Shown one piece after another: positions 10,184-39,820 of a stretch of 64,000 bases of DNA; the first letter of the stretch is position 1, and each line of letters opens with the position of its first letter. The DNA lies in sequence record OQ703618.1; one strand, written 5' to 3'. The DNA is from Escherichia phage GADS24. The notes beneath the pieces are model-generated. The model made no database searches. It was not told where the DNA came from and saw only the letters and a program-made list of their open reading frames with translations. Made by a program: the position numbers and the translations under genes.

Positions 10184-12397
10184 TTATTTGGCCGCTTCCA
10201 CGGCCTTCATGAATTTAACGATTTGAGCGACCTGTTCTTTAGAAAGAGTACCACGTCGTCCCATGTATTCTGACACAATATGATAATTGGTTTCAAATTC
10301 AATAACCATTTTATCATCATTATCGTAAGCATTATCTTTAAGCTTATCGAAAATTTTAGCACACAGTTCTAACTTCCTGTTCAGGTCTCTGTTATTAGCA
10401 CCTGCGAATCGATTCCATCCCCAACGATTATTTACTGTTGAAAGTTTTGCAAAATCTTTACTGATTTCTTTGTTCTTAGAGCTAAAATACTTACTAAGGA
10501 AGTTAAGCTCTTCATTACGAGTAATATGGTTTAGATAGGGCTGTGCTCTACGACTTGGTGATACATACTCATCATAATCTACTTTATCGATTAGCGTAAT
10601 GTAGTCATTAATTGATTTTTCGAACAAGCATTCTACTTCACCAAGTTTACGAACTTTCTTAGCAATCTGTGGGCGGACCACAGTGAACTCTTTAATACCT
10701 GACAAATCGGCAATACGAGTCAAGAAACCAGAATCATAGTTCAACCAACCTTTATCTGCGTCAAGACATTCAGCATTAGAACGATTACGAACTATAGCAT
10801 AACCTTGGATTTCATCAGCTTCACTCGCCGGAATAAAGAGATCTTCTGATACCCAAACATCGTTTTCGTTCTTAAAGAACCGATGAGCACTTGGGGATTT
10901 AGGACGAGGCCCATTAGAACGAGTCTTGACTTCAATCCATGGCTTAACGATTTGTAAAAGCTCTGAAGTCTTGTACATGTTAATGTTGTCGCCATCAAAG
11001 ATAACTTTAAGGCGTTCCAGAAGTTTCATTGCATCTTCGTCTGTAGGGTCAACGAATAGTACGCTTTTACCAAAACCGCGTGGAACTTTACCGGTTAATT
11101 TAACCTCGTCTTTAGACATTTCAATTGAATTAAGAGCTCGCATTAATGGAACACGTCCCTTAACGTCGTCAATAACAATTTCAACGTTTTTAATGTTAAT
11201 GCCAATCAGACTGTTAATTGAAATAGTTGCAGATGAGCTACCACTTTCACGAATACGACGAAGACGAGGGTCTTCAATGATATCGTATACGACGCCGAGA
11301 TTACACCATTCGGGTCCCATTTTAAAACGTTTGTACAACTCAGAATAAGTTAGTTGTTCTTTAGAATATTTCAGAGATTCAATATTAGTCCCAGCCTTTT
11401 CCATGTATTTGCGAGCGGTATAGCCAAGAGAATCAATTTCACGGAACACATGACGCGGGTATTTACAATCAATCCATTTCTTAGAATCTTCAGCGAACAA
11501 TTTAGCATCGATTTCTGCAACGCGTTTATGGATATTTGCTACTGTACGTTTATCAAATGACAATGCTTCACGAGACGGGGCTACATCTAGTTCACCCATA
11601 GGGAATTTAATATAAGCTGTAGTGCATCGCGTCATCATCCATGTTTGTTCTTTAATAACACTTCCGATTGGATACACAATACCACCATAAACAGCCATGA
11701 TATTACCACGTTCACCCCATGGAGCTTCCTTGGCCAAATATACATCATCAAATTCAGGAAAGTATTTGATATCTTTAACACCACGAACTTCTGCAATATC
11801 ACCTAGAGGACGCATAACATAAGCAATTTCGGATGCGAACTTTTCAAAATCTTCTGGGTTAACAGGCACAACTACTTCAACGCCAGTCCGGTCATCAGGT
11901 CCCATCTTATCTACGAAGGTTGGCTTAATTTGTGGACCACTGTCATCTTGGTAGATTACGTAACCACGAACTTCACCATTGTGATAAGACGTAAGGTTAA
12001 ACGTATCGGTATATGCTAGTGGAGCTTTAGAGCCGAGTCCGAATCCACCAATGAAATCGTTACTCGATGTTTTAGTTGAAGCAAAATATGAGTTATAGAT
12101 TCCTGGCTCTTCGTCATTACCTCGAATGGTGAAATCACTCATACCAGGACCAAAGTCTCTAACTACAAAACGTGGGTCTAAACGACCTGGAGCCTGAACA
12201 ATAAACTTATCAGTGCAACCATTAAGAATTTGTCCATCGATACAGTTTGTGATTAATTCACGTACACAAGCCAATTCTTTGTTTGTATAAAGGTCATTAG
12301 ACAAAATCTTATAAACTTTGCTATTGCCTTGAATAGTAAATGCTGTGCTCTTACCGCCTGAGCCAATAATCGTTTCTTTAGCCGTTTCAATAATCAT
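10184..12397 (-). CDS. rIIA: rIIA protein
   Basis: 737 aa; N-terminus MIIETAKETIIGSGGKS..KVYKILSNDLYTNK resembles recalled T4 rIIA. Confidence 0.9.
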   Translation of the reverse strand: MIIETAKETIIGSGGKSTAFTIQGNSKVYKILSNDLYTNKELACVRELITNCIDGQILNGCTDKFIVQAPGRLDPRFVVRDFGPGMSDFTIRGNDEEPGIYNSYFASTKTSSNDFIGGFGLGSKAPLAYTDTFNLTSYHNGEVRGYVIYQDDSGPQIKPTFVDKMGPDDRTGVEVVVPVNPEDFEKFASEIAYVMRPLGDIAEVRGVKDIKYFPEFDDVYLAKEAPWGERGNIMAVYGGIVYPIGSVIKEQTWMMTRCTTAYIKFPMGELDVAPSREALSFDKRTVANIHKRVAEIDAKLFAEDSKKWIDCKYPRHVFREIDSLGYTARKYMEKAGTNIESLKYSKEQLTYSELYKRFKMGPEWCNLGVVYDIIEDPRLRRIRESGSSSATISINSLIGINIKNVEIVIDDVKGRVPLMRALNSIEMSKDEVKLTGKVPRGFGKSVLFVDPTDEDAMKLLERLKVIFDGDNINMYKTSELLQIVKPWIEVKTRSNGPRPKSPSAHRFFKNENDVWVSEDLFIPASEADEIQGYAIVRNRSNAECLDADKGWLNYDSGFLTRIADLSGIKEFTVVRPQIAKKVRKLGEVECLFEKSINDYITLIDKVDYDEYVSPSRRAQPYLNHITRNEELNFLSKYFSSKNKEISKDFAKLSTVNNRWGWNRFAGANNRDLNRKLELCAKIFDKLKDNAYDNDDKMVIEFETNYHIVSEYMGRRGTLSKEQVAQIVKFMKAVEAAK

Positions 12398-12409: not shown

Positions 12410-12610
12410 TCACAAGTTACGTTTAAAAATTTCTGCTACTTCAAGAAGTTCTTCTTTAGTAGCTGTATCGGTTTGTATTTTATATCGAATTTCTTTAAAG
12501 CGTTCTTTAAAGGACTCTGCTGACTCGATATCAAAAAATCTTTGGATAAGCCGGAATTCCCGGAGCACCGCTTTATCAAAAAGGTCCAAGTCCACGTTAT
12601 ATGTTCTCAT
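12410..12610 (-). CDS. Hypothetical protein (rIIA.1-like, 66 aa)
   Basis: Small ORF directly upstream of rIIA with SD GAAGAGAA. Confidence 0.5.
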   Translation of the reverse strand: MRTYNVDLDLFDKAVLREFRLIQRFFDIESAESFKERFKEIRYKIQTDTATKEELLEVAEIFKRNL

Positions 12611-12702: not shown

Positions 12703-13803
12703 TTACGCTGTGAAGATTTTATCCCACATCGCAACAACTGCATCTCGGTTATACTTCTTCCATACTGCTTCAGCGCGTTTAACTCGAGCTTCGTATGTGT
12801 CAGTGAATTCTAATACAGCTTTTGTGTAAAGCGCAACTACTTCTTTCTTAGGAGTAGAGGAATCAATTTCTACACGCACAGTATCTGGGTCGTATTCGAA
12901 TGTCGCATGAGGATAATCCTTAAAAACTAACTGGATTACAGGGACACCTTTAGAGATGGCTTCAATAGAACTATTCTCTACTGTACCTGTGTCAGGACAC
13001 GTATTAATAAGTGCTTTAGCTGTTTTAAGACGTTCCATGATTTCACTGTGTGGAGCATCAATAATAACAGGATATTTAGCTGGTGGTGCCCATTTACTAG
13101 GACAGTATCCTACACCATTTTCGCCTAGTGCTTTAATCGCTTCAAGAGCAACATCAGTACGACGCATTTTAGTGTCATAACGTTGTGCACTAATAATCAA
13201 ATCAGTTGCCGGGAGAACTTCTGGTTTTTCAGTCAAACAAATAACCGGATAATCTTCGGCTTCAAACAACGGATTTGCTCGCCAATAATCATAATCAATT
13301 TTGTCAGTCAGACCTGAAGTCATATAACAATATTTGCGTTCAAATTCACGGAAGGCTTTAGTAGGAGCATAACTCTTACCACCATTCTTATGAATTTGAA
13401 TAGTCTGGTCCCAAATTTGAACAATGCCACGAGATACCGGTTCAAATGGTGTTGCCATAAAATTCTTATGAACTTTAGAGAGACCTGCGTCTTTAATTGC
13501 CTGAACGGTTAGTTTAGTCGGTTCCATAGTAACAACAAAATCGTATTCATGTATGCCGGCTAGTTCGACAATCTTACGAGCCATAGTATAACTCATACCT
13601 AGACTGAATTTAGTCAGATGTCCAACAGGGTGGTGTGTAACTTTCCAGTCACCAAACGTGTCATTATCAAAGCCGATATAATCAATATCAGCACCGATGG
13701 ACACAAGATATTTCAACACATTTAAATGTACTGCTTCAAGACCACCTTGTACACGGTCAGGATTAAATGGGACTGCACGAGATGGGATAAACATAACTTT
13801 CAT
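12703..13803 (-). CDS. GT-B fold glycosyltransferase; candidate hmC-DNA sugar transferase (arabinosyltransferase-like)
   Basis: 366 aa; C-terminal GT4-like E-x7-E motif (VENSSIEAISKGVPVI); lies between rIIA.1 and gene 39 where T4 has gene 60; no alpha/beta-gt elsewhere in the window. Confidence 0.75.
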   Translation of the reverse strand: MKVMFIPSRAVPFNPDRVQGGLEAVHLNVLKYLVSIGADIDYIGFDNDTFGDWKVTHHPVGHLTKFSLGMSYTMARKIVELAGIHEYDFVVTMEPTKLTVQAIKDAGLSKVHKNFMATPFEPVSRGIVQIWDQTIQIHKNGGKSYAPTKAFREFERKYCYMTSGLTDKIDYDYWRANPLFEAEDYPVICLTEKPEVLPATDLIISAQRYDTKMRRTDVALEAIKALGENGVGYCPSKWAPPAKYPVIIDAPHSEIMERLKTAKALINTCPDTGTVENSSIEAISKGVPVIQLVFKDYPHATFEYDPDTVRVEIDSSTPKKEVVALYTKAVLEFTDTYEARVKRAEAVWKKYNRDAVVAMWDKIFTA

Positions 13804-13814
13804 AATTAAGCCTT

Positions 13815-13847
13815 ATTAAAATTAAAATGAAGCTCCCGAAGGAGCTT
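13815..13847 (-). terminator. Hairpin at the 3' end of gene 39 (terminator/attenuator-like)
   Basis: AAGCUCC-UUCG-GGAGCUU followed by an A/T-rich run; overlaps the last codons of gene 39. Confidence 0.35.
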
Positions 13848-15663
13848 AGGACATCCATTCTTTACGAAGTTCTGAATCATCACCCAACAACATTTCAAAG
13901 AGTTCTTTCCAGTTTTCAGGAAGTTTAACTACGTCGTACACAGGGTTCTGAATCATTTCACGATATTCTGACTTTTCAAGGGAGCCTAATCCCTTGATGT
14001 ATCGAATACTATGCTTAGGCAGTGTATCTTTAACTTCTTCATACTCAGCTACAGTATAAAACCATTTTTGAGTTTTGCCAATTTGTGCAATAATTACAGG
14101 CGTTTTAACAAAGCGAATACGTCCTTGTTCAAACAATTCAGGCCAATTACTAAAGAAAGCAAGCAAAGCCGGATAAATACTTCCAAGGCCGTCATGATCG
14201 GCATCGGTCATAATTGCAATATTACGATAGTTCGTATTCTCTGCCTTTTCACCAAGAATAAGACCTGTGATAGCACAGATATCAAAGAGCTCTTTGTTCT
14301 TCATCATATCAGCATATGACATACCCCAGCTATTCATCACCTTACCACGTAATGGGAATCCACCGTGTAGTTCACGGTCACGAACATCAATGAGATAACC
14401 AATTGCCGAATCACCTTCTGTTAAGAACAATGTCGTATCTGCATCTTTACCACATTGGTTAGCTTTAATATGCTTATGAACCTTAGCTTTAGTTGCCTTT
14501 TTAGCTGCTTTAGTTTCTGCAGCCTTTTCTGCTGCCAATTTACGAGCTAATGCTGCTTCAACAATAGGCATAATCAAGGCTTCGTTTTTAAGAAGTGCCT
14601 GAGCAATTTTCTTAGCATCTAATTGGATATGATTACGAATATCACCATACGTTGACGTTAATCGTTCTTTAGTCTGAGAATCAAAACGCATGTTGCTCAT
14701 GTCTCTAATAAACATCAACATTGTGAGGCATTCTTTAACACGAGCTTTAGTGACTTCAATACCCTTATATTTCTTTTTAATACCAGGCAAAAGATGTTCG
14801 CAGATATCATCCATTACACATTCAACATGATGACCACCGTTTTTAGTATGGATGTTATTCACATAAGTTAAATGACGGAAGCCGTCTGGTGATGTTGTGA
14901 ATGCTATAGAGACTTTATCATTTTCTTGAATGATGTTATCTTCGCCAAATTGTTTAGCAAATCGTTTAAAATTACCATCAACCTTTTTACCATTAAATGT
15001 GAACTTGATATCAGGATAAACGACTGCCAATGTTTGAAGTCGGTCTAAAGTAATATCTAAATAAATTTGAGATAAATTATGCTCTTCAAACGAAGAGAAA
15101 TCAGGAGTGAAGATTACTTTAGTGCCTTTACCTTTAGATTTCTTAGAAGACCATGATTTGTTTTCCATTCCGTTTGAACAGTTAACAGTGATTTCATTTT
15201 CGCCATCCGACGTGATGCCTGTAAACAACGTGGAGAAGATATTAGTTAAACTACTCCCGACGCCGTTCATACCACCAGTCTTGCGTTCAGAGTCATCACC
15301 AAAGTTACCACCGGCCTTTGGAATAGTCCAGGCTGCTACAGGCCCAGGAATTTGTTCACCTGTTTGGTCGGTAACTAAACCTTGAGGAATACCACGTCCG
15401 TTATCTTCCACCGAAACTTGATTATTTTTAATTTGCACATCAATTTTATTTGCAAACTTAAATGATGTACGAATAGCTTCATCAACCGAGTTGTCAATAA
15501 TCTCATCGATTAATTTAACCAGACCAGGAACATATTCAACTTGTTGATATTTACCAAACAAAAAACGCTCATGGGCTTCTTTAGCAGAAGAACCAATATA
15601 CATACCACTACGTTTCTTAATATGTTCTACATCTGACAATACCTTAATTTCATTTTTAATCAT
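13846..15663 (-). CDS. 39: DNA topoisomerase II large subunit (single 39+60 polypeptide, GyrB-like ATPase)
   Basis: 605 aa; GHKL ATPase and TOPRIM motifs (GLVKLIDEIIDNSVDE, TEGDSA, DADHDG); T4 gene order. Confidence 0.9.
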   Translation of the reverse strand: MIKNEIKVLSDVEHIKKRSGMYIGSSAKEAHERFLFGKYQQVEYVPGLVKLIDEIIDNSVDEAIRTSFKFANKIDVQIKNNQVSVEDNGRGIPQGLVTDQTGEQIPGPVAAWTIPKAGGNFGDDSERKTGGMNGVGSSLTNIFSTLFTGITSDGENEITVNCSNGMENKSWSSKKSKGKGTKVIFTPDFSSFEEHNLSQIYLDITLDRLQTLAVVYPDIKFTFNGKKVDGNFKRFAKQFGEDNIIQENDKVSIAFTTSPDGFRHLTYVNNIHTKNGGHHVECVMDDICEHLLPGIKKKYKGIEVTKARVKECLTMLMFIRDMSNMRFDSQTKERLTSTYGDIRNHIQLDAKKIAQALLKNEALIMPIVEAALARKLAAEKAAETKAAKKATKAKVHKHIKANQCGKDADTTLFLTEGDSAIGYLIDVRDRELHGGFPLRGKVMNSWGMSYADMMKNKELFDICAITGLILGEKAENTNYRNIAIMTDADHDGLGSIYPALLAFFSNWPELFEQGRIRFVKTPVIIAQIGKTQKWFYTVAEYEEVKDTLPKHSIRYIKGLGSLEKSEYREMIQNPVYDVVKLPENWKELFEMLLGDDSELRKEWMS

Positions 15664-15704: not shown

Positions 15705-15726
15705 AAAGCAAAAAGGGCCGAAGCCC
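15705..15726 (-). terminator. Rho-independent terminator upstream of gene 39
   Basis: GGGC-UUCG-GCCC followed by TTTTTGCTTT. Confidence 0.5.
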
Positions 15727-16086
15727 TTATTTAAATTTAATTTTCTGAAGTGCATCAATTGCAGCCAAACGCCCTTGTTCACTTTTAACTGTAATGACCA
15801 CATCGCCTGATACGATCACCGAACCATCAACAAATTCTATAGAGCCTTTTTTGAAATCGACCGCTGTATCTGGTTCCGGAACTTCTTCAAAGAATTTAAA
15901 TTCTGCACCATAAAGCAGAATATCACCTTGCATACTATGAATAGTTCGACCATAATCACCTACGGCTTCTACAGCAATAACAGAAACGCCGTAACCAATC
16001 ATCTCTTCCACAATAAAATCTTTGGACAATAAAGTAGTATGCAGATTAGTATTAAGACGTTTACCAGTCGTATTAAGAAGTCTCAA
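15727..16086 (-). CDS. Hypothetical protein (39.1-like); start uncertain (TTG in track)
   Basis: ORF upstream of gene 39 followed by a UUCG-loop terminator; a short ATG ORF in another frame lies just upstream. Confidence 0.45.
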   Translation of the reverse strand: MRLLNTTGKRLNTNLHTTLLSKDFIVEEMIGYGVSVIAVEAVGDYGRTIHSMQGDILLYGAEFKFFEEVPEPDTAVDFKKGSIEFVDGSVIVSGDVVITVKSEQGRLAAIDALQKIKFK

Positions 16087-21168: not shown

Positions 21169-21476
21169 CGTAAAGTCCCTGCAATCGGAATACTAACAAT
21201 ACGGCCTGTGTCCAGGATTCGTTGATACAATTTTTGCGTCTCCGCATCTAGTTTAATGTGTTTCATTTCAAGCTTATTAAACCAGAACTTACGCGGAGTT
21301 TCGACCATTCTTAGAACTCCCATTTTTAAATCTGTTTTATACTGTGTTTTCAAAGTATCGAAAACTTTATCTGCAATATCCTTTCTAAAAAATACTGCAG
21401 GACGATGCTCATCAAGTGGAACCGGGACAGTAAATCCTTCCATATCTCGATAAACTATTGCATATACATAAACCAT
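21165..21476 (-). CDS. Hypothetical protein (dda.1 position, 103 aa)
   Basis: ORF with ATGA overlap to dda. Confidence 0.5.
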   Translation of the reverse strand: MVYVYAIVYRDMEGFTVPVPLDEHRPAVFFRKDIADKVFDTLKTQYKTDLKMGVLRMVETPRKFWFNKLEMKHIKLDAETQKLYQRILDTGRIVSIPIAGTLR

Positions 21477-21478
21477 AA

Positions 21479-22225
21479 TTAACCTTTAATCAGTTGGAAT
21501 AATGATGCGCTAAGTGGTAGGCCACGTTTCAATTTTAATTTACCAATGAAACCGATCTTTTCAAAACGTTGCAGACCTTGGATAACTTTATCATATGTAT
21601 CGAAAAGCGATTCAGCGTCAGTTAATTTAGTTTTAGTTTTCCAGTCAGAGCCTTTAAGAAGAACATTGAGTTTAGTAAGTTCATGGCCTTCTGCTTGATG
21701 TGAGCCATTAATGCGTGCTTTCAAAGCAACAATTCTAAGTTTAGATTCGTTAGATAAAGGTTGATTTTTCATCATGTTCGCCATATGCTTAACACGATTT
21801 TCACGTTTTGCTCGGATTTTTAAAATAGTACCATAAACCTTTTTAATTTGGGCCCATTTCTTCTCGTCGAGATTAAGTTTCTCTACTTTACGGGCAGAAG
21901 GATTAGCAATACGTCTTGCAACAGCGTCACGTTTCTCAATAAGTTCTTCTAATGTTAAATCAGAACGAGCCGTGTTATATTTTTTCTTAACTGGGATAAC
22001 ATTACCTTTAATGTAGCCTATATCATTATTAAAACGTTCTAAGGATAATTTCTCACCTTCAACAGAGTTATTGAAAGATTCACCTGAGTAAGCGCAGACC
22101 TTTTGATCAAGAATGTTTTTAAGGTAATTAAAGTCTAAGTTAAAATCCTTAGAGCGTCTCTTCGCAGAAGCTCTAGTGTGGTCAAGACGACGATTGATTT
22201 TGTTAATTTTATTATTTGATAACAT
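21479..22225 (-). CDS. srd: Srd-like protein (putative sigma-factor mimic), 248 aa
   Basis: Size and position between dda and modA as in T4; basic, helical composition. Confidence 0.6.
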   Translation of the reverse strand: MLSNNKINKINRRLDHTRASAKRRSKDFNLDFNYLKNILDQKVCAYSGESFNNSVEGEKLSLERFNNDIGYIKGNVIPVKKKYNTARSDLTLEELIEKRDAVARRIANPSARKVEKLNLDEKKWAQIKKVYGTILKIRAKRENRVKHMANMMKNQPLSNESKLRIVALKARINGSHQAEGHELTKLNVLLKGSDWKTKTKLTDAESLFDTYDKVIQGLQRFEKIGFIGKLKLKRGLPLSASLFQLIKG

Positions 22226-22263
22226 AATATTTTCCTCTGTCTTACGGACGTTAGGTCATTTAG

Positions 22264-22302
22264 CTGATAGGTCTATAATATCACGCCCTCAGGTAGTGTA
22301 CA
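22264..22302 (-). promoter_or_regulatory. Early promoter cassette for srd
   Basis: Minus strand GTGTAC-17 nt-TATTAT-AGACCTATCAGC. Confidence 0.5.
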
Positions 22303-22377
22303 CTCTTTTTTCGTAAAATGCTTTAATTTTTTATGTGTTATAATGGTTCTGAGTTCCATCCGGTTATTCCAATCCAG

Positions 22378-22986
22378 TCAGTAACTGACAATAGACAGAT
22401 TCCAGATTGTATAACGTCCATCTTGAATAATAGAATCTACACGCAGTGTAGTCCCTATAGGGAGCATAAATTCACATTCGTCAGATATAAGTCTAGCATT
22501 AGACCGTCTTGTCGCTTCAGGGAAAGCTCCATTGAACTCGCAAGATGGTGCAGCCAGAATCATATTAAGCATATGTTCACGGAAGTTGAAAGCAAATGGT
22601 GCATCTTTGATGCAGAACATATTAAATGTTCCATAAAAATTATATGAAGCGAAGTTACGTGCTACACCAAACACCGGACTAAAGCTCATTACTCTATCAA
22701 ATTTAATAATACTACCAACGCCTTTATCGTCGAGTGTGGCCATAGTTTTCTTAGAGATTCCACGATACATTGTCTCAGGAACTGAAGAAGACCAATTTCT
22801 ACGAACGATTGAACTTAACTCCTGTTGAATACAGTCTGGCTTGTTTTCCATACACTGCCAAAGGATGCTTTGTTCATTATCGTTGAATTGACTATCAATT
22901 TCGTACTGCAATACATCTTGATATTCGGGGTTTTGAGCACGACGAACCATTTCTTCAATTTCACACTCGTTATACGGCATAAACAT
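22378..22986 (-). CDS. modA: ADP-ribosyltransferase ModA
   Basis: 202 aa; paralogous to the next ORF (shared QNILW, VPxxLYRG blocks); T4 order srd-modA-modB. Confidence 0.75.
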   Translation of the reverse strand: MFMPYNECEIEEMVRRAQNPEYQDVLQYEIDSQFNDNEQSILWQCMENKPDCIQQELSSIVRRNWSSSVPETMYRGISKKTMATLDDKGVGSIIKFDRVMSFSPVFGVARNFASYNFYGTFNMFCIKDAPFAFNFREHMLNMILAAPSCEFNGAFPEATRRSNARLISDECEFMLPIGTTLRVDSIIQDGRYTIWNLSIVSY

Positions 22987-25489: not shown

Positions 25490-26011
25490 TCAGTAACCAT
25501 TATCCTGGCGTTCAAAGTTGTGTTGGTTTTTCAAGTAGTAAAGTTTAAAGATTTCTTCAGCGGAAAGACCCAGACCTTGGAACATATTCAGAACAAAGTG
25601 GAGAATATCAATCATCTCAAATTTAATTTCAAGCTGGTCTTCAGGAGACAGTTCATCGATACGACGATTTCGATATTCAGCATGTTGTGCTTTCCATGGC
25701 TTCCATACAGAGCTAGCGGCTTTTTCACCATTGCTCATACCACCGAGTGAAGTCAGCAGTTCACGGAATTCATCATCAATATAATCTTTCTGATTACGCA
25801 GCCAATCAACAACATCACCGGCAGTGGCCAATTCATCAGGATGTTTGTTATGTTCAGGCTTGTCATTTGCCAGACGAACCTGTAAAGATTTCTGCATATC
25901 AAGCATTACCTGAAGTGGGTCTTTATCTTCGTGAATCAGAGCATTAAAATAAGCTTCTTCTGCTTTATCAACACCAGAAATAAGTTGTGAACATTCATTA
26001 AAGTGCGCCAT
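25490..26011 (-). CDS. 56: dCTPase/dUTPase gp56 (MazG-like dCTP pyrophosphatase)
   Basis: About 173 aa from ATG at 26011 (track start is TTG); position between soc and 61; SD AAAGGAAA. Confidence 0.8.
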   Translation of the reverse strand: MAHFNECSQLISGVDKAEEAYFNALIHEDKDPLQVMLDMQKSLQVRLANDKPEHNKHPDELATAGDVVDWLRNQKDYIDDEFRELLTSLGGMSNGEKAASSVWKPWKAQHAEYRNRRIDELSPEDQLEIKFEMIDILHFVLNMFQGLGLSAEEIFKLYYLKNQHNFERQDNGY

Positions 26012-34085: not shown

Positions 34086-34634
34086 TTAACGAGCCCATTT
34101 GATAATTTCTGTAATCAAATTATTACGTTCGCTTGCATTAAATCCTATAACTTTGTTAGCACCATCATGATTAAGTAATTGATATGTTTGGATTTTGTTA
34201 TGAATTGCAAACTCTTCAAAATGTGAAATGACTGTATTAAAACCGAATGAAGACAAAGTAATAAGGTCGTCTTCAAAACTTTCAGTCATTTCGTTACGTG
34301 TTAAAATAATTGTGAACACATCATGGTTTTGGCAAAGACGAACATAATCCTGTTCATAAACATCAAGAACCGAGTCCGCATCTTGTCGAATACGTCCATA
34401 AACCCAGTTACTAATATATCCACGGTCTAACAGATAAATCTTAGTAGGGTCTAAATAATTCAACATCGTTTCGAAACAGCCAACTTCATTTCGAGACTTA
34501 ACATCAAAACGTCCATCAACTGTTCGTTTAGGGAAATCAATTTTTACATATCTTTCACTAATTTCCATTATGTCATTAATGAAAGTTGTTTTACCAGCAT
34601 TATCCGGGCCATCTACTAAAATAATTTTAGCCAT
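34086..34634 (-). CDS. P-loop nucleotide/nucleoside kinase-like protein
   Basis: 182 aa; Walker A VDGPDNAGKTT and LLDRGYIS (DR motif) as in dNMP/thymidylate-type kinases; first gene of the modification cluster. Confidence 0.6.
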   Translation of the reverse strand: MAKIILVDGPDNAGKTTFINDIMEISERYVKIDFPKRTVDGRFDVKSRNEVGCFETMLNYLDPTKIYLLDRGYISNWVYGRIRQDADSVLDVYEQDYVRLCQNHDVFTIILTRNEMTESFEDDLITLSSFGFNTVISHFEEFAIHNKIQTYQLLNHDGANKVIGFNASERNNLITEIIKWAR

Positions 34635-34635
34635 T

Positions 34636-35535
34636 TTATTCCTCGATTACGACATCTTCGTATTTAGGTATATTATACGGTGAAGAAATTAAAGCATTAA
34701 AGTAGATGAACTCGCCAAGACCTGGATGGAATACTTCTTCAGGATTTTCGAAATATTGAATCTTCGGCCGTCCTTTAAGAATTTGATAGTACTCAGTTTT
34801 AGTTGGTTTAAAAATTCGAATCAGCGCTTCTTCAGGATACTTATTTCTATCGAAGCTATTATTTGGATCGGTTACATAAAGCGGTTGACCTAATTGAATT
34901 GCACATTCAACCACTTGTTCAAAACGATAGCACGGGTCACTAATTCGAAATGGATGAAAAATACCATCTAGATGAATAGGAGCCAAATCACCTACAAAAC
35001 GCTGCATGATGGAAGGACGTATAACTTTCTGGGTTACGATAATCTTATTACCATCTGCACCAGCGTTAACCAGCACTTCCTTTTGACGTTCATTCAACAC
35101 AGTAGTTTGAAGTGAACGATTAACCGACAACATGTCGGTTTTTAAGAATTCGTCAATATAAAAACGTGGTTTATTAGGGTCTGCAGTGATATTGAAATTG
35201 AATTCTACATCAAAAGCTCCGTCATATCCAGTGATATCTGTTATTAGAAAATCACAATCATAATAAGCAATTAATGAATCAACCACAAATTCATTTTCAG
35301 ACCAGAAATATTTACGAGTGTTATACGCGTTATCTTTATACCATAACGGAACAAACTTAAATTCTGGGAAAAGACGTTCACATTCTTTAATATCAGATGC
35401 ATTACGTGGATATGTAATAACATCACCCGGATTAGCACGGTGCAAATGAAGTTGGAAGTTGCCATCCTTAAGGATAGCATACTCTCCAGTTTCATAAGAC
35501 CGCATACTCAAGATAGGTACGCGGAAAATAGCCAT
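34636..35535 (-). CDS. Hypothetical protein (299 aa) in the modification cluster; possible transferase
   Basis: Immediately downstream of gene 42 with ATGA overlap; Asp-rich YYDCDF segment; no family recognised. Confidence 0.55.
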   Translation of the reverse strand: MAIFRVPILSMRSYETGEYAILKDGNFQLHLHRANPGDVITYPRNASDIKECERLFPEFKFVPLWYKDNAYNTRKYFWSENEFVVDSLIAYYDCDFLITDITGYDGAFDVEFNFNITADPNKPRFYIDEFLKTDMLSVNRSLQTTVLNERQKEVLVNAGADGNKIIVTQKVIRPSIMQRFVGDLAPIHLDGIFHPFRISDPCYRFEQVVECAIQLGQPLYVTDPNNSFDRNKYPEEALIRIFKPTKTEYYQILKGRPKIQYFENPEEVFHPGLGEFIYFNALISSPYNIPKYEDVVIEE

Positions 35536-36251
35536 TAGTCAAGGAATCCTTTAACATAATCAAAATCACGTTCAAACACATGGGCACTTACCATGGTATG
35601 AGTATAATCACCAACTTCTACACCACATTCGTTAGCGATATAATGAAGTAATTTTCCTTGGAGATAAAAATCCAACTGCATAACAACAGCACAGTTCTGA
35701 GAACGCATATGGCAGTGGGTATAAAGCTTACCATCACGAATATAATAAGTCACTGAGTCAGTACATGGATATTCAAGCGTTTCGTCCGAATCAAGCAAAG
35801 CCTGATCAGAACTTTCTAGAATTTGGAACACAACTCTTCGAGAGTTAGGTTTCTCTTTAAGTTCTTTGAGAAGAGCTGGTAACTGGGCCGCAATTCGTGG
35901 ACCATAGAAAGTGTTGAAGTTTGCAGGCAAAGCATCTGATTTCGGTTTAGAAATAAATTTAGCAACGTTAGGATATGCCTTAAATGCTTCTTCTGCATCA
36001 GTTCCGCCAGAAATCATAAATTTCCAGAAATCTTCGGCATATTCATAAGAGATGCGGTTAATACGTGGGTCGGTCATTTTGAATGATGATGGAGTGTCAA
36101 CAACTACTGTCATAGACCCAATTTCATTACAACGTCCAATACGAGAATCAGTTACGAATTCCGGGTTTTCTAAAATCTCACGATTGACTGCTTTAAATGC
36201 GGATTGAAAATCTGCGGCTTTAATATATTTCATTGTGTTATGTTTTCCCAT
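35535..36251 (-). CDS. 42: dCMP hydroxymethylase (thymidylate synthase family), gene 42
   Basis: 238 aa; TS-family core with nucleophile Cys in YPCTDS, RS dyad 20-21 residues later and Asp at the position of TS Asn177 (cytosine specificity). Confidence 0.75.
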   Translation of the reverse strand: MGKHNTMKYIKAADFQSAFKAVNREILENPEFVTDSRIGRCNEIGSMTVVVDTPSSFKMTDPRINRISYEYAEDFWKFMISGGTDAEEAFKAYPNVAKFISKPKSDALPANFNTFYGPRIAAQLPALLKELKEKPNSRRVVFQILESSDQALLDSDETLEYPCTDSVTYYIRDGKLYTHCHMRSQNCAVVMQLDFYLQGKLLHYIANECGVEVGDYTHTMVSAHVFERDFDYVKGFLD

Positions 36252-36292: not shown

Positions 36293-36532
36293 TTATTTGA
36301 ATTTCTTAGCGATGTTGATATAACGTAGAGCTTCGGCATCGATACTTCTAAGGACACTATGAAGGAATGCGTCGGCATAGTATTCTAGTTGAACAGGTTC
36401 TTTAATCGCTTTAGCCGCTTTAGTTTCAAACAGGCCCATAAGGGCCTTTTTAAGAATTTGTTCGTTGCTGGTAATTTTAATAGTCAAAATCTCTTCATTA
36501 AGTTGGTGGTTAAAAGTTTTTCTAGAAATCAT
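36293..36532 (-). CDS. Hypothetical protein (79 aa)
   Basis: Small ORF between the U32-like gene and gene 42. Confidence 0.45.
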   Translation of the reverse strand: MISRKTFNHQLNEEILTIKITSNEQILKKALMGLFETKAAKAIKEPVQLEYYADAFLHSVLRSIDAEALRYINIAKKFK

Positions 36533-37689
36533 TCCGGGTACCTCAAAGCGTCGTCAGAGTTAGTTATATCAATAATAGATATAGAATTTTCTGATAACCC
36601 ATTTTTAGATAACTGACGTTTATAATATCTTTCACAATATGTACACGTCGTCCCGCAGATTTCATTAGCACAATCGAAATCTGGATGTCTGAACCACCTT
36701 TTTTCTAAAAAGCCGTCTAACAAAGAGGTTTCAATATTTACCGTATGTGAAAACTCGGTCTCATTTTCAAGAGTGAAAATGGTCTCTAAAGGCTTCCACA
36801 GTTCTAACAAATTACCTTCAAACTTTTCAGAAGCGTATGCTTCAAGAACTTTCAAAATGTAGTCTGTGCTACCTGTACGTCCTGAAACTTTGAATTGAGT
36901 GATACCAATATCATTATAAAGTTTCAAATCTTGTGGACGAACAAAACGAGTTCTCAACCAGTTAAATGGGTCTGTATCACGAGCTTTAATACAGTGCTGC
37001 ATAGGATATCCATTTAAGGATTTAGCATCATCAGCTGTAACATCAGTACTATGGAAAATATAGCAAGAGTCACGATAGCTACAATGTGTTGTATACCCTT
37101 TACCAGCATTAGAACAGAACTCATTTACAAGAACTTCAAATATTATATTGTTCTTATTGCAAAACTCTGCTGCACGCTTCAGGAAAGAAACTGAACGGTT
37201 CTTATGAATTCCACAGCAGACCTTTTTGATATTATACTGGTCATGTAAGTATTTGATTTGAGTTACAGCATCGACATGTAAAATTGTTGAAACTTCAATC
37301 TCAATGTCTTTATTGACTTCACGAACAATTTCCATAACAACAGGGTTAGCGATAGTAATACGCCATACGCCTATTGACCAAAGATACTGAACATAATCCT
37401 GAATAGCTTTCTTCTTCCACTCAACTAGTTCTCTTTTTGAACCGGGATTTATCGTGTTGAGTGTATAGTTAAAGCAAATACCTAATTCGTTACAACGTTT
37501 AACGTAATCTTCTAACATCTTTTTGTCAACGTCAGGAAGCCTAAAATCAGGTCTGGCTGCTACAAAAGCCATTTCTCTTGTAGAGCCGTATACTTCGTTT
37601 ATCAAGCTATTAGGATAAGTTTTATTGAGCTCTACGATTTTATCAAGAAGAGCTAAATCAAAATTCGTTCCGATTTTAAAAGTATTCAT
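36529..37689 (-). CDS. Cys-rich TIM-barrel-like enzyme, peptidase-U32-like (putative Fe-S protein), about 386 aa
   Basis: N-terminal pattern resembling U32 proteins (..EVYGS..ARPDF..ICFNYTLNT), central EVLVNEFCSNAGKGYTTHCSY, C-terminal CGTTCTYC (CxxxCxxC); trimmed to first ATG. Confidence 0.55.
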   Translation of the reverse strand: MNTFKIGTNFDLALLDKIVELNKTYPNSLINEVYGSTREMAFVAARPDFRLPDVDKKMLEDYVKRCNELGICFNYTLNTINPGSKRELVEWKKKAIQDYVQYLWSIGVWRITIANPVVMEIVREVNKDIEIEVSTILHVDAVTQIKYLHDQYNIKKVCCGIHKNRSVSFLKRAAEFCNKNNIIFEVLVNEFCSNAGKGYTTHCSYRDSCYIFHSTDVTADDAKSLNGYPMQHCIKARDTDPFNWLRTRFVRPQDLKLYNDIGITQFKVSGRTGSTDYILKVLEAYASEKFEGNLLELWKPLETIFTLENETEFSHTVNIETSLLDGFLEKRWFRHPDFDCANEICGTTCTYCERYYKRQLSKNGLSENSISIIDITNSDDALRYPE

Positions 37690-37748
37690 TTTTTTTTTGC
37701 ATCTCACGTTAATTGACGCGATGGTTTTTGCAGGTCTTACTTAAATTA

Positions 37749-38150
37749 TTATAGATTCGGTTTATATGATTTAAATGTTTCGAATTCGCCTTTATTCATA
37801 AGAGCTTTGAATTCGTCGGGACGCATAGCTTTGTCGTCGATAATCCAATCATATACTGGTTTATGTGTTAGCAAATTATGGTACTTCAAGCCAATGTTTG
37901 CCAAGTTCTGAATAAGACTTGGGAGAATGTCAATTGCTATACGACCAGGACCTACTGACTTCATACCGCGAGCAGTGTAAAGCGTTATGGTATGCCCTGC
38001 ATCATACAGGGCATTAATGGCAGACACCATTTCGACGTCTGGTTTGAAGTTCACGTAATCACGATTGTTATTCCACTCTGTTATACAATCATCGACATCA
38101 AAACAAAGATTAAGCATGTTTTCTACACGGTGCATTAGATTCGTTCCCAT
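37749..38150 (-). CDS. HAD-superfamily phosphatase (KdsC-like sugar-phosphate phosphatase)
   Basis: 133 aa; motif I FDVDDCIT (DxDx[T/V]) near the N-terminus; overlaps the upstream gene. Confidence 0.65.
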   Translation of the reverse strand: MGTNLMHRVENMLNLCFDVDDCITEWNNNRDYVNFKPDVEMVSAINALYDAGHTITLYTARGMKSVGPGRIAIDILPSLIQNLANIGLKYHNLLTHKPVYDWIIDDKAMRPDEFKALMNKGEFETFKSYKPNL

Positions 38151-39820
38151 TGATGAGTGATATCGCCACCGATTGGACGATAGGAAACACCAGTTTCTTT
38201 ATCAGTTAGTACCCATTTACCAGGATTTTTTGTAATCAGAGTAGCCGTTACAGGTTCTGCCATGTCATAACTAATAGAGCCGTCCTGAAGTACACGGCCC
38301 ATGTTACGTAATTGCTTAGTCAGAAGTTCCATACCTTTATAATATGCGGCTACCGCTTTAAGTGGATTATTCTTGAAATAACCACCTAATGCAATCCAGA
38401 TAATTGCTACAGCCAAATGATGATACTCGTTAAATGAACTCATCTTTCCATATTTGTAAACTAATGGATTGATGTTAATAGTCACATTACAAGTTGTTTC
38501 ATCAATAGTAAACTGTCCCCAGGTCGGATTAGCGTTGAATTCATCATAACCTGAAACAGCATAAAGCACTTTAGCTTCATCGTACAATTTTGGCCCGTAA
38601 ATCTTGGTTTCGCCAAAATATCCACGAGGGTCGATAAACTTGACTTCGCCGTTATCAGTAATCATAGTATTACTGAAGTTCGGGTCACCGTGAATAACAG
38701 AGTACTGTCCCTGAGAACGGTTATGATAACGAATAAGGTGTTCTAAAGCTTGTTTCAGCATTGGCTTCAGACGCCCAATCTTAGTGTAGTTCACATGTGT
38801 GATTTTACCAAATGAATCAATCAATGGTTGAATACTTTCACAACGATCAATAACTTTCGTATAGAATTCTTTAGTGAAATCACGACGAACAGTTTCAGGA
38901 CTTACAAAATAAGTGTCTGTGCTGAATTTCAGTGCATCTAAAATTGCATCAACAATTTGTGGACGAGCAAGACTCGATTTAGATTTAATATATTCAAATG
39001 CCGGCTTACCTTTAATGCGTTCCATTTCAAAGTTATTTTCATTAACAGAAACTAACTGAGGAACTGAATCTGATTTCACTTTAAGATACCATGAAATCTC
39101 ATCTTTCTGAAGAGCTCGTCCCTGTTCGGTTAATGCGAATTTAGTTACAGTTTCTTCACCAATTTCAACTGCATTAAAACTACGATTAAGTTCACGAACT
39201 TCATGAGCTTTTTCAAGTTTAGGCATATCACCTAAATCAATTAGATTCATAAGCTCTGATTTATTGAATGCGCCGCTGTAAAGGAATTCTACGAAATCAC
39301 GTCCTTTGCAGTATTCATGAATTTCCTCATCAGTAGAACCCATATAGAATTCCCAGTCTTTGAATTGATAAATTCCTACAACATTACCACCTGTTGAACC
39401 TACGTTAGTGATATTTTCACCGTCGAAATTATATCGACATTCGTCACCCTTAACATAGATTGCGTTAACATTCCAAGACCATGAACCAAAATCAGGAATA
39501 ATATCACACCAGTTAACAATTACATTATGGCCGTCTAAATCTTTGTGTAATTTAGCAAGAGCATAAGCGGAACCATATGCTTCATCAACTGTACGAATAG
39601 TCACATTGAACCCTTCTTGCTCACAATAAGCTCGAACAGTTTCAGCAAATTTTGAATGAACTACTACAATAATTTCATCTGCGCCAAGGTCAGAATAAAT
39701 TGTATACAAATTGCTCAGAATAGTGTCTTGTTTATAGTTAACAAGCACCTTAGGAATATGATGCGTTATTGGATACAAACGAGTTGCCAGTCCAGCACCA
39801 AGAATAACAGCTTTTTTCAT
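38135..39820 (-). CDS. Bifunctional sugar-1-phosphate nucleotidyltransferase (N-terminal) / sugar kinase (C-terminal)
   Basis: 561 aa; N-terminal ILGAGLATRLYPIT..PKVLV (RmlA/GlmU-type G-x-G-x-R); C-terminal HGDPNFSNTMI..FIDPRGYFG resembling APH/choline-kinase catalytic loop. Confidence 0.7.
   Translation of the reverse strand: MKKAVILGAGLATRLYPITHHIPKVLVNYKQDTILSNLYTIYSDLGADEIIVVVHSKFAETVRAYCEQEGFNVTIRTVDEAYGSAYALAKLHKDLDGHNVIVNWCDIIPDFGSWSWNVNAIYVKGDECRYNFDGENITNVGSTGGNVVGIYQFKDWEFYMGSTDEEIHEYCKGRDFVEFLYSGAFNKSELMNLIDLGDMPKLEKAHEVRELNRSFNAVEIGEETVTKFALTEQGRALQKDEISWYLKVKSDSVPQLVSVNENNFEMERIKGKPAFEYIKSKSSLARPQIVDAILDALKFSTDTYFVSPETVRRDFTKEFYTKVIDRCESIQPLIDSFGKITHVNYTKIGRLKPMLKQALEHLIRYHNRSQGQYSVIHGDPNFSNTMITDNGEVKFIDPRGYFGETKIYGPKLYDEAKVLYAVSGYDEFNANPTWGQFTIDETTCNVTININPLVYKYGKMSSFNEYHHLAVAIIWIALGGYFKNNPLKAVAAYYKGMELLTKQLRNMGRVLQDGSISYDMAEPVTATLITKNPGKWVLTDKETGVSYRPIGGDITHQWERI

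Follow-up and report, generated by a model that had tools for sequence, protein, structure and literature searches.

The gene between rIIA.1 and the topoisomerase gene

The 64,000-nucleotide stretch of Escherichia phage GADS24 analysed here (record OQ703618.1; this whole stretch is called the window below) comes from a Mosigvirus (RB69-like) genome, with a DNA identity of 98-98.6% to many Mosigvirus coliphages. We focus on a gene on its minus strand that codes for a protein of 366 amino acids (aa), and that is probably the accessory, chain-extending (second) DNA arabinofuranosyltransferase of Mosigvirus phages. An initial annotation, made from the letters of the window, had taken this protein for a glycosyltransferase of the GT-B fold and for the prime candidate to transfer a sugar onto 5-hydroxymethylcytosine (hmC) in the phage DNA. 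The gene and its upstream leader are the following:

12703-13803, minus strand: 366-aa GT-B glycosyltransferase, an open reading frame (ORF) complete from ATG to stop, ortholog of RB69 ORF003c/gp3 and of HY126 XAN60436.1
13804-13847, minus strand: intergenic leader with a hairpin, from a scan for terminator-like sites and from reading of the sequence, of putative function

The ORF is present from ATG to stop on the minus strand just where it had been annotated. It is flanked by rIIA (10184-12397) and rIIA.1 (12410-12610) on one side, and on the other by the 605-aa topoisomerase large subunit, a fusion of gp60 and gp39 (13846-15663). The slot had been likened to that of gene 60 in T4, and rightly so: between rIIA.1 and the topoisomerase gene, T4 holds genes 60, 60.1, and mobA, RB69 holds ORF003c, and phage HY126 holds XAN60436.1. 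The RB69 protein (ORF003c, or gp3) is 98.9% identical to that of the window, from which it differs by four substitutions only (T56N, T191N, V231A, and T327I), and the two can be regarded as functionally alike; for comparison, the DNA polymerase and UvsX are 99.8% and 100% identical between RB69 and the window. The protein called 'putative hmC-arabinosyltransferase' in phage Bas46 is again the product of the same 366-aa gene in the same slot.

The ORF is a real gene, far beyond chance, as shown by its conservation in 211 phage records, a match to PHROG 8302 over its full length, and a solved structure. A horizontal transfer of the gene was considered and finds no support; its GC content (39.6%, and 26.7% at third codon positions) is like that of the neighbouring genes.

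Concerning the leader, a UUCG-loop hairpin (AAGCUCC-UUCG-GGAGCUU) lies across the stop codon of gp39; next come a U-rich tract, an AAGG Shine-Dalgarno sequence, and finally the ATG of the 366-aa gene. Perfect GC-rich hairpins with a UUCG tetraloop occur at 13830-13847 and at 15713-15728, right after the stop codon of gp39 and that of the ORF at 15727-16086, respectively, and terminator-like sites in the 12.3-16.2 kb region number seven, as compared to 2.2 +/- 1.6 in shuffled sequence. These hairpins may act between early genes as terminators or as elements of RNA stability. A scan for sigma-70 promoters around the 366-aa gene gave a number of sites not above that of shuffled sequence.

Fold and nucleotide-binding motif

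The glycosyltransferase of phage HY126 (XAN60436.1), which is about 98-99% identical to the 366-aa protein, has been crystallised, and a phmmer search matched the corresponding PDB entries 9IQZ/9IR0 at an E-value of 3.6e-250. Both entries were released on 2025-07-16; the protein was named by its depositor 'Glycosyltransferase subfamily 4-like N-terminal domain-containing protein', and the title of 9IR0 is 'phage HY126 glycosyltransferase with UDP' (uridine diphosphate). The 366-aa protein is a GT-B fold nucleotide-sugar transferase, whose binding of UDP is implied by the title of 9IR0.

We also built an AlphaFold2 (AF2) model of the 366-aa protein from an alignment of six sequences (pLDDT 60.3, pTM 0.47, with a weak N-domain), which was used for a Foldseek search only. 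This search returned 203 matches at E<=0.001, and among the 50 matches listed all are either the protein's own structure or GT-B enzymes, with 9IR0/9IQZ on top, followed by the GT4-type GT-B enzymes PimA (1e-10), LmbT, BshA, and WaaG (to 1e-7). Structural comparison, through a 99% identical crystal structure (9IR0) and through these neighbours, bears out the fold that had been assigned to the protein in the initial annotation. Searches at the sequence level retrieve no known family: neither Pfam at E<=10, including Glycos_transf_1 and Glyco_trans_4, nor NCBIfam gives a match to the 366-aa protein, and a hidden Markov model built from 14 members of its family finds only the protein's own structure among PDB sequences.

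The assignment had been based on a GT4-like E-x7-E motif in VENSSIEAISKGVPVI. This segment is indeed present, as residues 275-290, and the spacing of its glutamates is E-x4-E: the motif reads T-G273-T-V-E276-N-S-S-I-E281-A, that is G-x2-E-x4-E, with E276 and E281 as the two glutamates. When aligned by hhalign (probability 96.8%) to P0124, a distant homologue with the canonical ETAGYAVFEAVSSGVPVI (ETAGYAVFEA), the first glutamate of the canonical pair falls opposite the invariant G273 and the second on E281, leaving E281 as the only one retained. The motif TGTVE[NH]xSxEA is kept in all 14 family members, together with an N-terminal GG loop and QR-x5-R; these two last elements are shared with the GT4 enzymes, as is an EA-x3-G-x-PV signature that is also found in the 366-aa family. 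From this alignment, we read the GT-B nucleotide-binding signature as real and its label of E-x7-E as wrong.

A second GT-B enzyme

The initial annotation had considered the 366-aa protein as the sole recognisable GT-B enzyme of the window. This has to be revised, as we identified a second one:

34636-35535, minus strand: 299-aa GT-B fold protein, corresponding to RB69 ORF047c and ORF046c as one ORF

Its AF2 model is confident (pLDDT 94.3) and displays the GT-B fold with high confidence. The 299-aa protein has no match in Pfam or NCBIfam either, and because neither of the two proteins is recognised by these collections, the second GT-B enzyme was invisible to a reader of the raw sequence; only structure-level comparison places the two among glycosyltransferases. 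Their families are unrelated by hhalign (probability 0.5%) and by BLASTP, and the two proteins are not recent paralogues. The 299-aa ORF lies directly downstream of a homologue of thymidylate synthase (ThyA), in the place where T4 has its beta-glucosyltransferase gene (beta-gt), downstream of gene 42. Homologues of T4 alpha-gt and beta-gt had been annotated as absent from the window, and tblastn searches agree, with best E-values of 1.8-2.8.

In the RB69 record AY303349.1, the counterparts of the 299-aa ORF and of a 561-aa ORF at 38135-39820 are split into the pairs ORF046c/047c and ORF052c/053c, whereas both are single and intact in the window. The splits in the RB69 record have been attributed to sequencing error (PMC13326640), a view that the intact ORFs of the window support. 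The same authors named RB69 gp46:47 'arabinosyltransferase 1', as a hypothesis (PMC13326640), and we infer that the 299-aa protein is the first, base-directed arabinosyltransferase.

The modified base and the supply of arabinose

The genes for 5-hydroxy-dCMP synthase and for the production of UDP-arabinose are all present at 34.1-40.6 kb, with 98-99.6% identity to those of RB69. The 366-aa ORF is 20-27 kb away from this cluster, consistently with the distance of about 20 kb initially reported. Together with the dCTPase, the components are:

25493-26011, minus strand: gp56 dCTPase, supplying dCMP for hydroxylation (tblastn with RB69 gp56, 97% over 173 aa)
34086-34634, minus strand: 182-aa nucleotide-kinase-like protein, RB69 ORF045c (98.9% identity; weak dTMP-kinase signal; role from Table 1 of PMC13326640)
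35535-36251, minus strand: predicted 5-hydroxy-dCMP synthase of the thymidylate-synthase family (Pfam Thymidylat_synt), making the precursor of 5-hydroxycytosine (5hoC) and not of hmC
36529-37707, minus strand: 392-aa protein of the peptidase U32 family, RB69 ORF050c (Pfam Peptidase_U32, E 7.7e-11; weak UbiU signal)
37749-38150, minus strand: HAD-type sugar phosphatase, RB69 ORF051c, analogue of HY126 AfhF (NCBIfam capsule biosynthesis phosphatase, E 4e-13; 99% identity; role from PMC13326640)
38135-39820, minus strand: 561-aa bifunctional sugar kinase and UDP-arabinose pyrophosphorylase, RB69 ORF053c+052c, analogue of HY126 AfhE (Pfam NTP_transferase and a kinase-like C-terminus; 98.6-99.4% to RB69 ORF053c/052c; role from PMC13326640)
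40002-40637, minus strand: SIS-domain arabinose-5-phosphate isomerase, RB69 ORF055c (Pfam SIS; 98.1% identity)

The ThyA homologue is the key to the nature of the base. A reader of the sequence would label this gene (35535-36251) as dCMP hydroxymethylase (gp42). RB69 gp48 has been shown by experiment to make 5-hydroxy-dCMP (PMC13326640), and because the ThyA homologue of the window is 99.6% identical to this proven synthase (gp48/ORF048c), the base would not be hmC; with an identity to T4 gp42 of only 25%, any annotation of hmC chemistry in the window would therefore be wrong. By orthology, rather than by chemistry on the window phage, we infer that the acceptor base is 5hoC.

RB69 DNA carries beta-D-Araf-(1->3)-alpha-D-Araf (Araf, arabinofuranose) attached by an ether bond to the C5-O of 5-hydroxy-dC, in addition to a mono-arabinosyl form (PMC13326640). 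The same chemistry has been described in Mosigvirus NP, and the earlier assignment of hmC was called erroneous (PMC13390438). Structural data exist for the hydroxylase as well: the ThyA homologue matches PDB 9IQC/9IR2 at an E-value of 1.8e-162, and also 9IQU, all with entry codes adjoining those of the glycosyltransferase (9IQZ/9IR0). The crystal structure and enzymology of the HY126 hydroxylase are credited to He et al., Nat Chem Biol 2026 (PMC13326640), and these authors are probably the source of the glycosyltransferase entries as well.

Distribution of the two families and number of arabinoses

Of the 211 phage records with a member of the 366-aa family, about 155 are Mosigvirus-type coliphages that carry one copy; another 55 belong to T4-like phages of Acinetobacter, where it occurs in two places each. 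The 299-aa family is found in 348 phage records, including Dhakavirus and phages of Klebsiella, Serratia, Yersinia, Proteus, Edwardsiella, and Acinetobacter, and by counts per organism, every organism group with the 366-aa family also has the 299-aa family. An exhaustive search retrieved only 11 relatives of the 366-aa protein among 1.84 billion representative proteins, and a plasmid collection gave no match to it. About 130 other phage records, along with LC53, Thanatos, and JS98, possess hydroxylase and UDP-arabinose genes without any 366-aa homologue, and the family is absent from cluster-bearing phages of Klebsiella, Yersinia, Proteus, and Edwardsiella.

A member of the 299-aa family is present in every T4-like phage that arabinosylates its DNA, and the 366-aa family is confined to phages with more than one arabinose on the base. 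Among chemically characterised phages, the copy number of the 366-aa family tracks the number of arabinoses. These phages are listed here together with JS98:

LC53: one arabinose; no copy of the 366-aa family, and two small ORFs in the slot between rIIA.1 and the topoisomerase gene
JS98: no copy of the 366-aa family, and an empty slot
RB69, Bas46, and NP: two arabinoses; one copy of the 366-aa family
DLP3: three arabinoses; two copies (gp76 and gp77), inside the cluster

The DNA of LC53 is mono-arabinosylated (bioRxiv 10.64898/2025.12.19.695335), that of RB69, Bas46, and NP is di-arabinosylated (PMC13326640; PMC13390438), and that of Thanatos is pentosylated (PMC12838424).

In Dhakavirus JS98 (NC_010105.1, 2570-7305), the cluster is reduced and rearranged, and consists of the glycosyltransferase, the synthase, a kinase, the phosphatase, and the bifunctional enzyme. 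JS98 has no U32 gene, SIS isomerase, or member of the 366-aa family, and presumably uses the arabinose-5-phosphate isomerase of its host and attaches a single sugar.

Probable assignment of the 366-aa protein to the second sugar

We consider the 366-aa protein as the probable second transferase because of this phyletic distribution and of the published chemistry. Mahler et al. (2025) reportedly described transferases, called Aat, that add the extra arabinoses. A Bas46 phage with Aat deleted is viable and turned sensitive to a defence system, the locus of Aat not being stated in that paper (PMC13216743). The closest biochemical evidence comes from DLP3, whose gp77 and gp76 are respectively 43% and 40% identical to the 366-aa protein from end to end: with UDP-Araf, gp76 and gp77 together add a third Araf onto RB69 DNA in vitro, and no single DLP3 glycosyltransferase has activity on 5hoC-DNA (PMC13326640). 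RB69 gp3 has been labelled 'beta-arabinosyltransferase 2' (PMC13326640), and Mosigvirus has been stated to possess two transferases that act one after the other, the second being the one encoded between rIIA and the topoisomerase gene (PMC13390438). The initial proposal of a transfer onto hmC is thus correct as to a GT-B nucleotide-sugar transferase of a phage DNA sugar-modification system, in view of the 99% identity to 9IR0, of the GT4 neighbours in Foldseek, and of the 40-43% identity to DLP3 gp76/gp77. It has to be amended as to the modified base, which would be 5hoC given the 99.6% identity of the ThyA homologue to RB69 gp48, and as to the step, since distribution and chemistry indicate that the sugar added is probably not the first.

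The pathway would then proceed as follows. The gp56 dCTPase (25493-26011) would provide dCMP, which the ThyA-like enzyme (35535-36251) would convert to 5-hydroxy-dCMP; kinases would phosphorylate the product, and dC would be replaced in replication. The part of the cluster at 37.7-40.6 kb (arabinose-5-phosphate isomerase, bifunctional kinase/uridylyltransferase, and HAD phosphatase) would supply UDP-D-arabinofuranose. The 299-aa GT-B enzyme would set the first alpha-Araf onto O5 of the base, and the 366-aa GT-B enzyme, holding UDP-Araf in its C-terminal Rossmann domain, would add the second Araf onto the first arabinose by a beta-(1->3) linkage. The product, 5-ara-ara-hydroxycytosine, would thicken the coat of sugar by which the DNA is shielded from host nucleases.

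Because the first Araf is alpha and the second beta, the two GT-B enzymes would follow opposite stereochemical courses, if they draw on one UDP-D-Araf pool. A GT4-like scaffold is normally retaining. We tentatively raise the possibility that the 366-aa protein, in which G273 replaces the canonical first glutamate and E276 is shifted, uses such a scaffold as an inverting beta-(1->3)-arabinofuranosyltransferase. It would then read a sugar borne by duplex DNA and not a flipped-out base.

Several observations weigh against the assignment of the 366-aa protein to the second sugar. The role of RB69 gp3 is explicitly given as a hypothesis (PMC13326640), and transfer of Araf to arabinosylated DNA has been published only for DLP3 gp76 plus gp77. 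Moreover, the two DLP3 paralogues are needed together for one addition, which makes 'one enzyme per sugar' too simple a rule (PMC13326640). The correlation between copy number and sugar number is based on five chemically characterised phages, and the AF2 model of the 366-aa protein is poor (pLDDT 60). Finally, the Thanatos member of the 299-aa family, TH1_063, has been reported to have UDP-xylose pyrophosphorylase activity in vitro, which clouds the assignment of this family to the first transfer (PMC12838424).

This last activity speaks for an alternative in which the 366-aa protein would be the primary, base-directed transferase on 5hoC and the 299-aa protein would do something else, such as nucleotide-sugar chemistry. 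The 366-aa protein is also the one that was crystallised with UDP, and its RB69 counterpart ORF003c is the one proposed as arabinosyltransferase by Thomas et al. (2018; PMC6024577). We nonetheless regard a primary role as unlikely: a primary transferase would be expected in every phage that arabinosylates cytosine, whereas the 366-aa family is lacking from LC53, Thanatos, JS98, and about 130 other records, and the DNA of LC53 and Thanatos is still pentosylated. The viability of Bas46 with aat deleted, at a locus not stated in that paper, points in the same direction (PMC13216743).

The requirement for both DLP3 paralogues raises another alternative, according to which the 366-aa protein would have no stand-alone step and would be an obligate partner of the 299-aa enzyme or of another factor, the pair installing both sugars. 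Indeed, DLP3 gp76 and gp77 are inactive singly and active only together (PMC13326640). However, Mosigvirus phages have a single copy, so that the pairing of DLP3 paralogues is not directly applicable to them; the 366-aa gene lies 21 kb from the 299-aa gene; and phages devoid of the 366-aa gene still arabinosylate once. An obligate partnership therefore seems distinctly improbable. Very little speaks for glycosylation of a target other than DNA, such as a component of the host envelope or a protein, with a coincidental link to DNA modification: although the gene is outside the modification cluster and the nearest structural neighbours of its product are the lipid, lipopolysaccharide, and small-molecule GT4 enzymes PimA, WaaG, and BshA, the family is restricted, as judged from organism counts, to phages that have the cluster for 5hoC and UDP-Ara, its Acinetobacter paralogues are inside the cluster and act on DNA in vitro, and it has no plasmid match and almost none among the 1.84 billion proteins, making such a target extremely improbable.

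Comparison with known glycosyltransferases

A second sugar placed onto a sugar already present on a modified cytosine is known from T2 and T6, where a beta-glucosyl-HMC-alpha-glucosyltransferase makes gentiobiosyl-hmC. The probable mode of action of the 366-aa protein is alike, and the two enzymes differ in donor (UDP-glucose in T2/T6), base (hmC), and sequence family. The T2 enzyme (ba-gt) is mentioned in the same study that reported an HHpred similarity of ORF003c to 1XV5 (Thomas et al., PMC6024577). The alpha-glucosyltransferase (GT72) and beta-glucosyltransferase (GT63) of T4 are likewise DNA-modifying GT-B enzymes with a UDP-sugar donor, but they attach glucose to hmC, whereas the window would use arabinofuranose on 5hoC, and they have no sequence match in the window.

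After its own crystal structure, the 366-aa protein has its best structural neighbours in the bacterial GT4 retaining enzymes (PimA, MshA, BshA, and WaaG), at Foldseek E-values of 1e-10 to 1e-7. Unlike them, it is without a Pfam match at E<=10, has Gly273 in place of the first glutamate, and would act on a sugar borne by DNA rather than on a lipid or small molecule. DLP3 gp76 and gp77 are full-length homologues that share TGTVE[NH]xSxEA and together extend arabinosylated DNA from UDP-Araf. The arrangement is nevertheless different, as DLP3 has two paralogues in its cluster, both required for the third sugar, whereas Mosigvirus has one copy 21 kb off and stops at two.

The U32 gene and chorismate mutase

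The U32 gene (36529-37707, minus strand; RB69 ORF050c) stands in the cluster beside the O2/flavin-dependent 5-hydroxy-dCMP synthase. Among U32 proteins, TrhP, RlhA, and UbiU/V act as hydroxylases that depend on prephenate and not on O2; the product of RlhA is 5-hydroxycytidine in rRNA. We found the gene to be 81-100% conserved in 221 records of phages with enterobacterial and Shewanella hosts, which are facultative anaerobes, and to be absent from Dhakavirus JS98 and from all pathway-bearing phages of Acinetobacter, a strict aerobe. Between the hydroxylase and U32 genes, LC53 and about 50 other phages have a gene for chorismate mutase (Pfam CM_2, 44.6 bits), the related intervals in LC53 being 21181-21525 and 21522-22691. 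By analogy with its relatives, the U32 gene may offer a way to 5-hydroxycytosine under anaerobic conditions. In PMC13326640, the U32 protein is called a 'sugar or heterocycle reductase', and no such route is mentioned.

In the window, the chorismate mutase slot of the LC53-type phages is filled by a 79-aa ORF (36293-36532, minus strand; RB69 ORF049c, PHROG 8601). We considered this ORF as a possible diverged chorismate mutase and found the idea unsupported, as it has no Pfam match and an hhalign probability of 0.65%.

Implications for Mosigvirus phages

The 366-aa gene is already known: its nomination as an arabinosyltransferase was published in 2018 (PMC6024577), its structure appeared in PDB in 2025, and its role as second transferase was proposed in 2026 (PMC13326640, PMC13390438). 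The value of the present analysis is therefore corrective, in that the base would be 5-hydroxycytosine, that the window codes for two GT-B enzymes, and that the one initially flagged is probably the extender. Mosigvirus phages are common in phage-therapy collections, and with each enzyme assigned to its sugar, defined mono- and di-arabinosylated phages could be built. It is the arabinose coat that sets which host defences reach Mosigvirus DNA, among them restriction enzymes, CRISPR-Cas, DNA glycosylases, and enzymes of the GmrSD/BrxU type.

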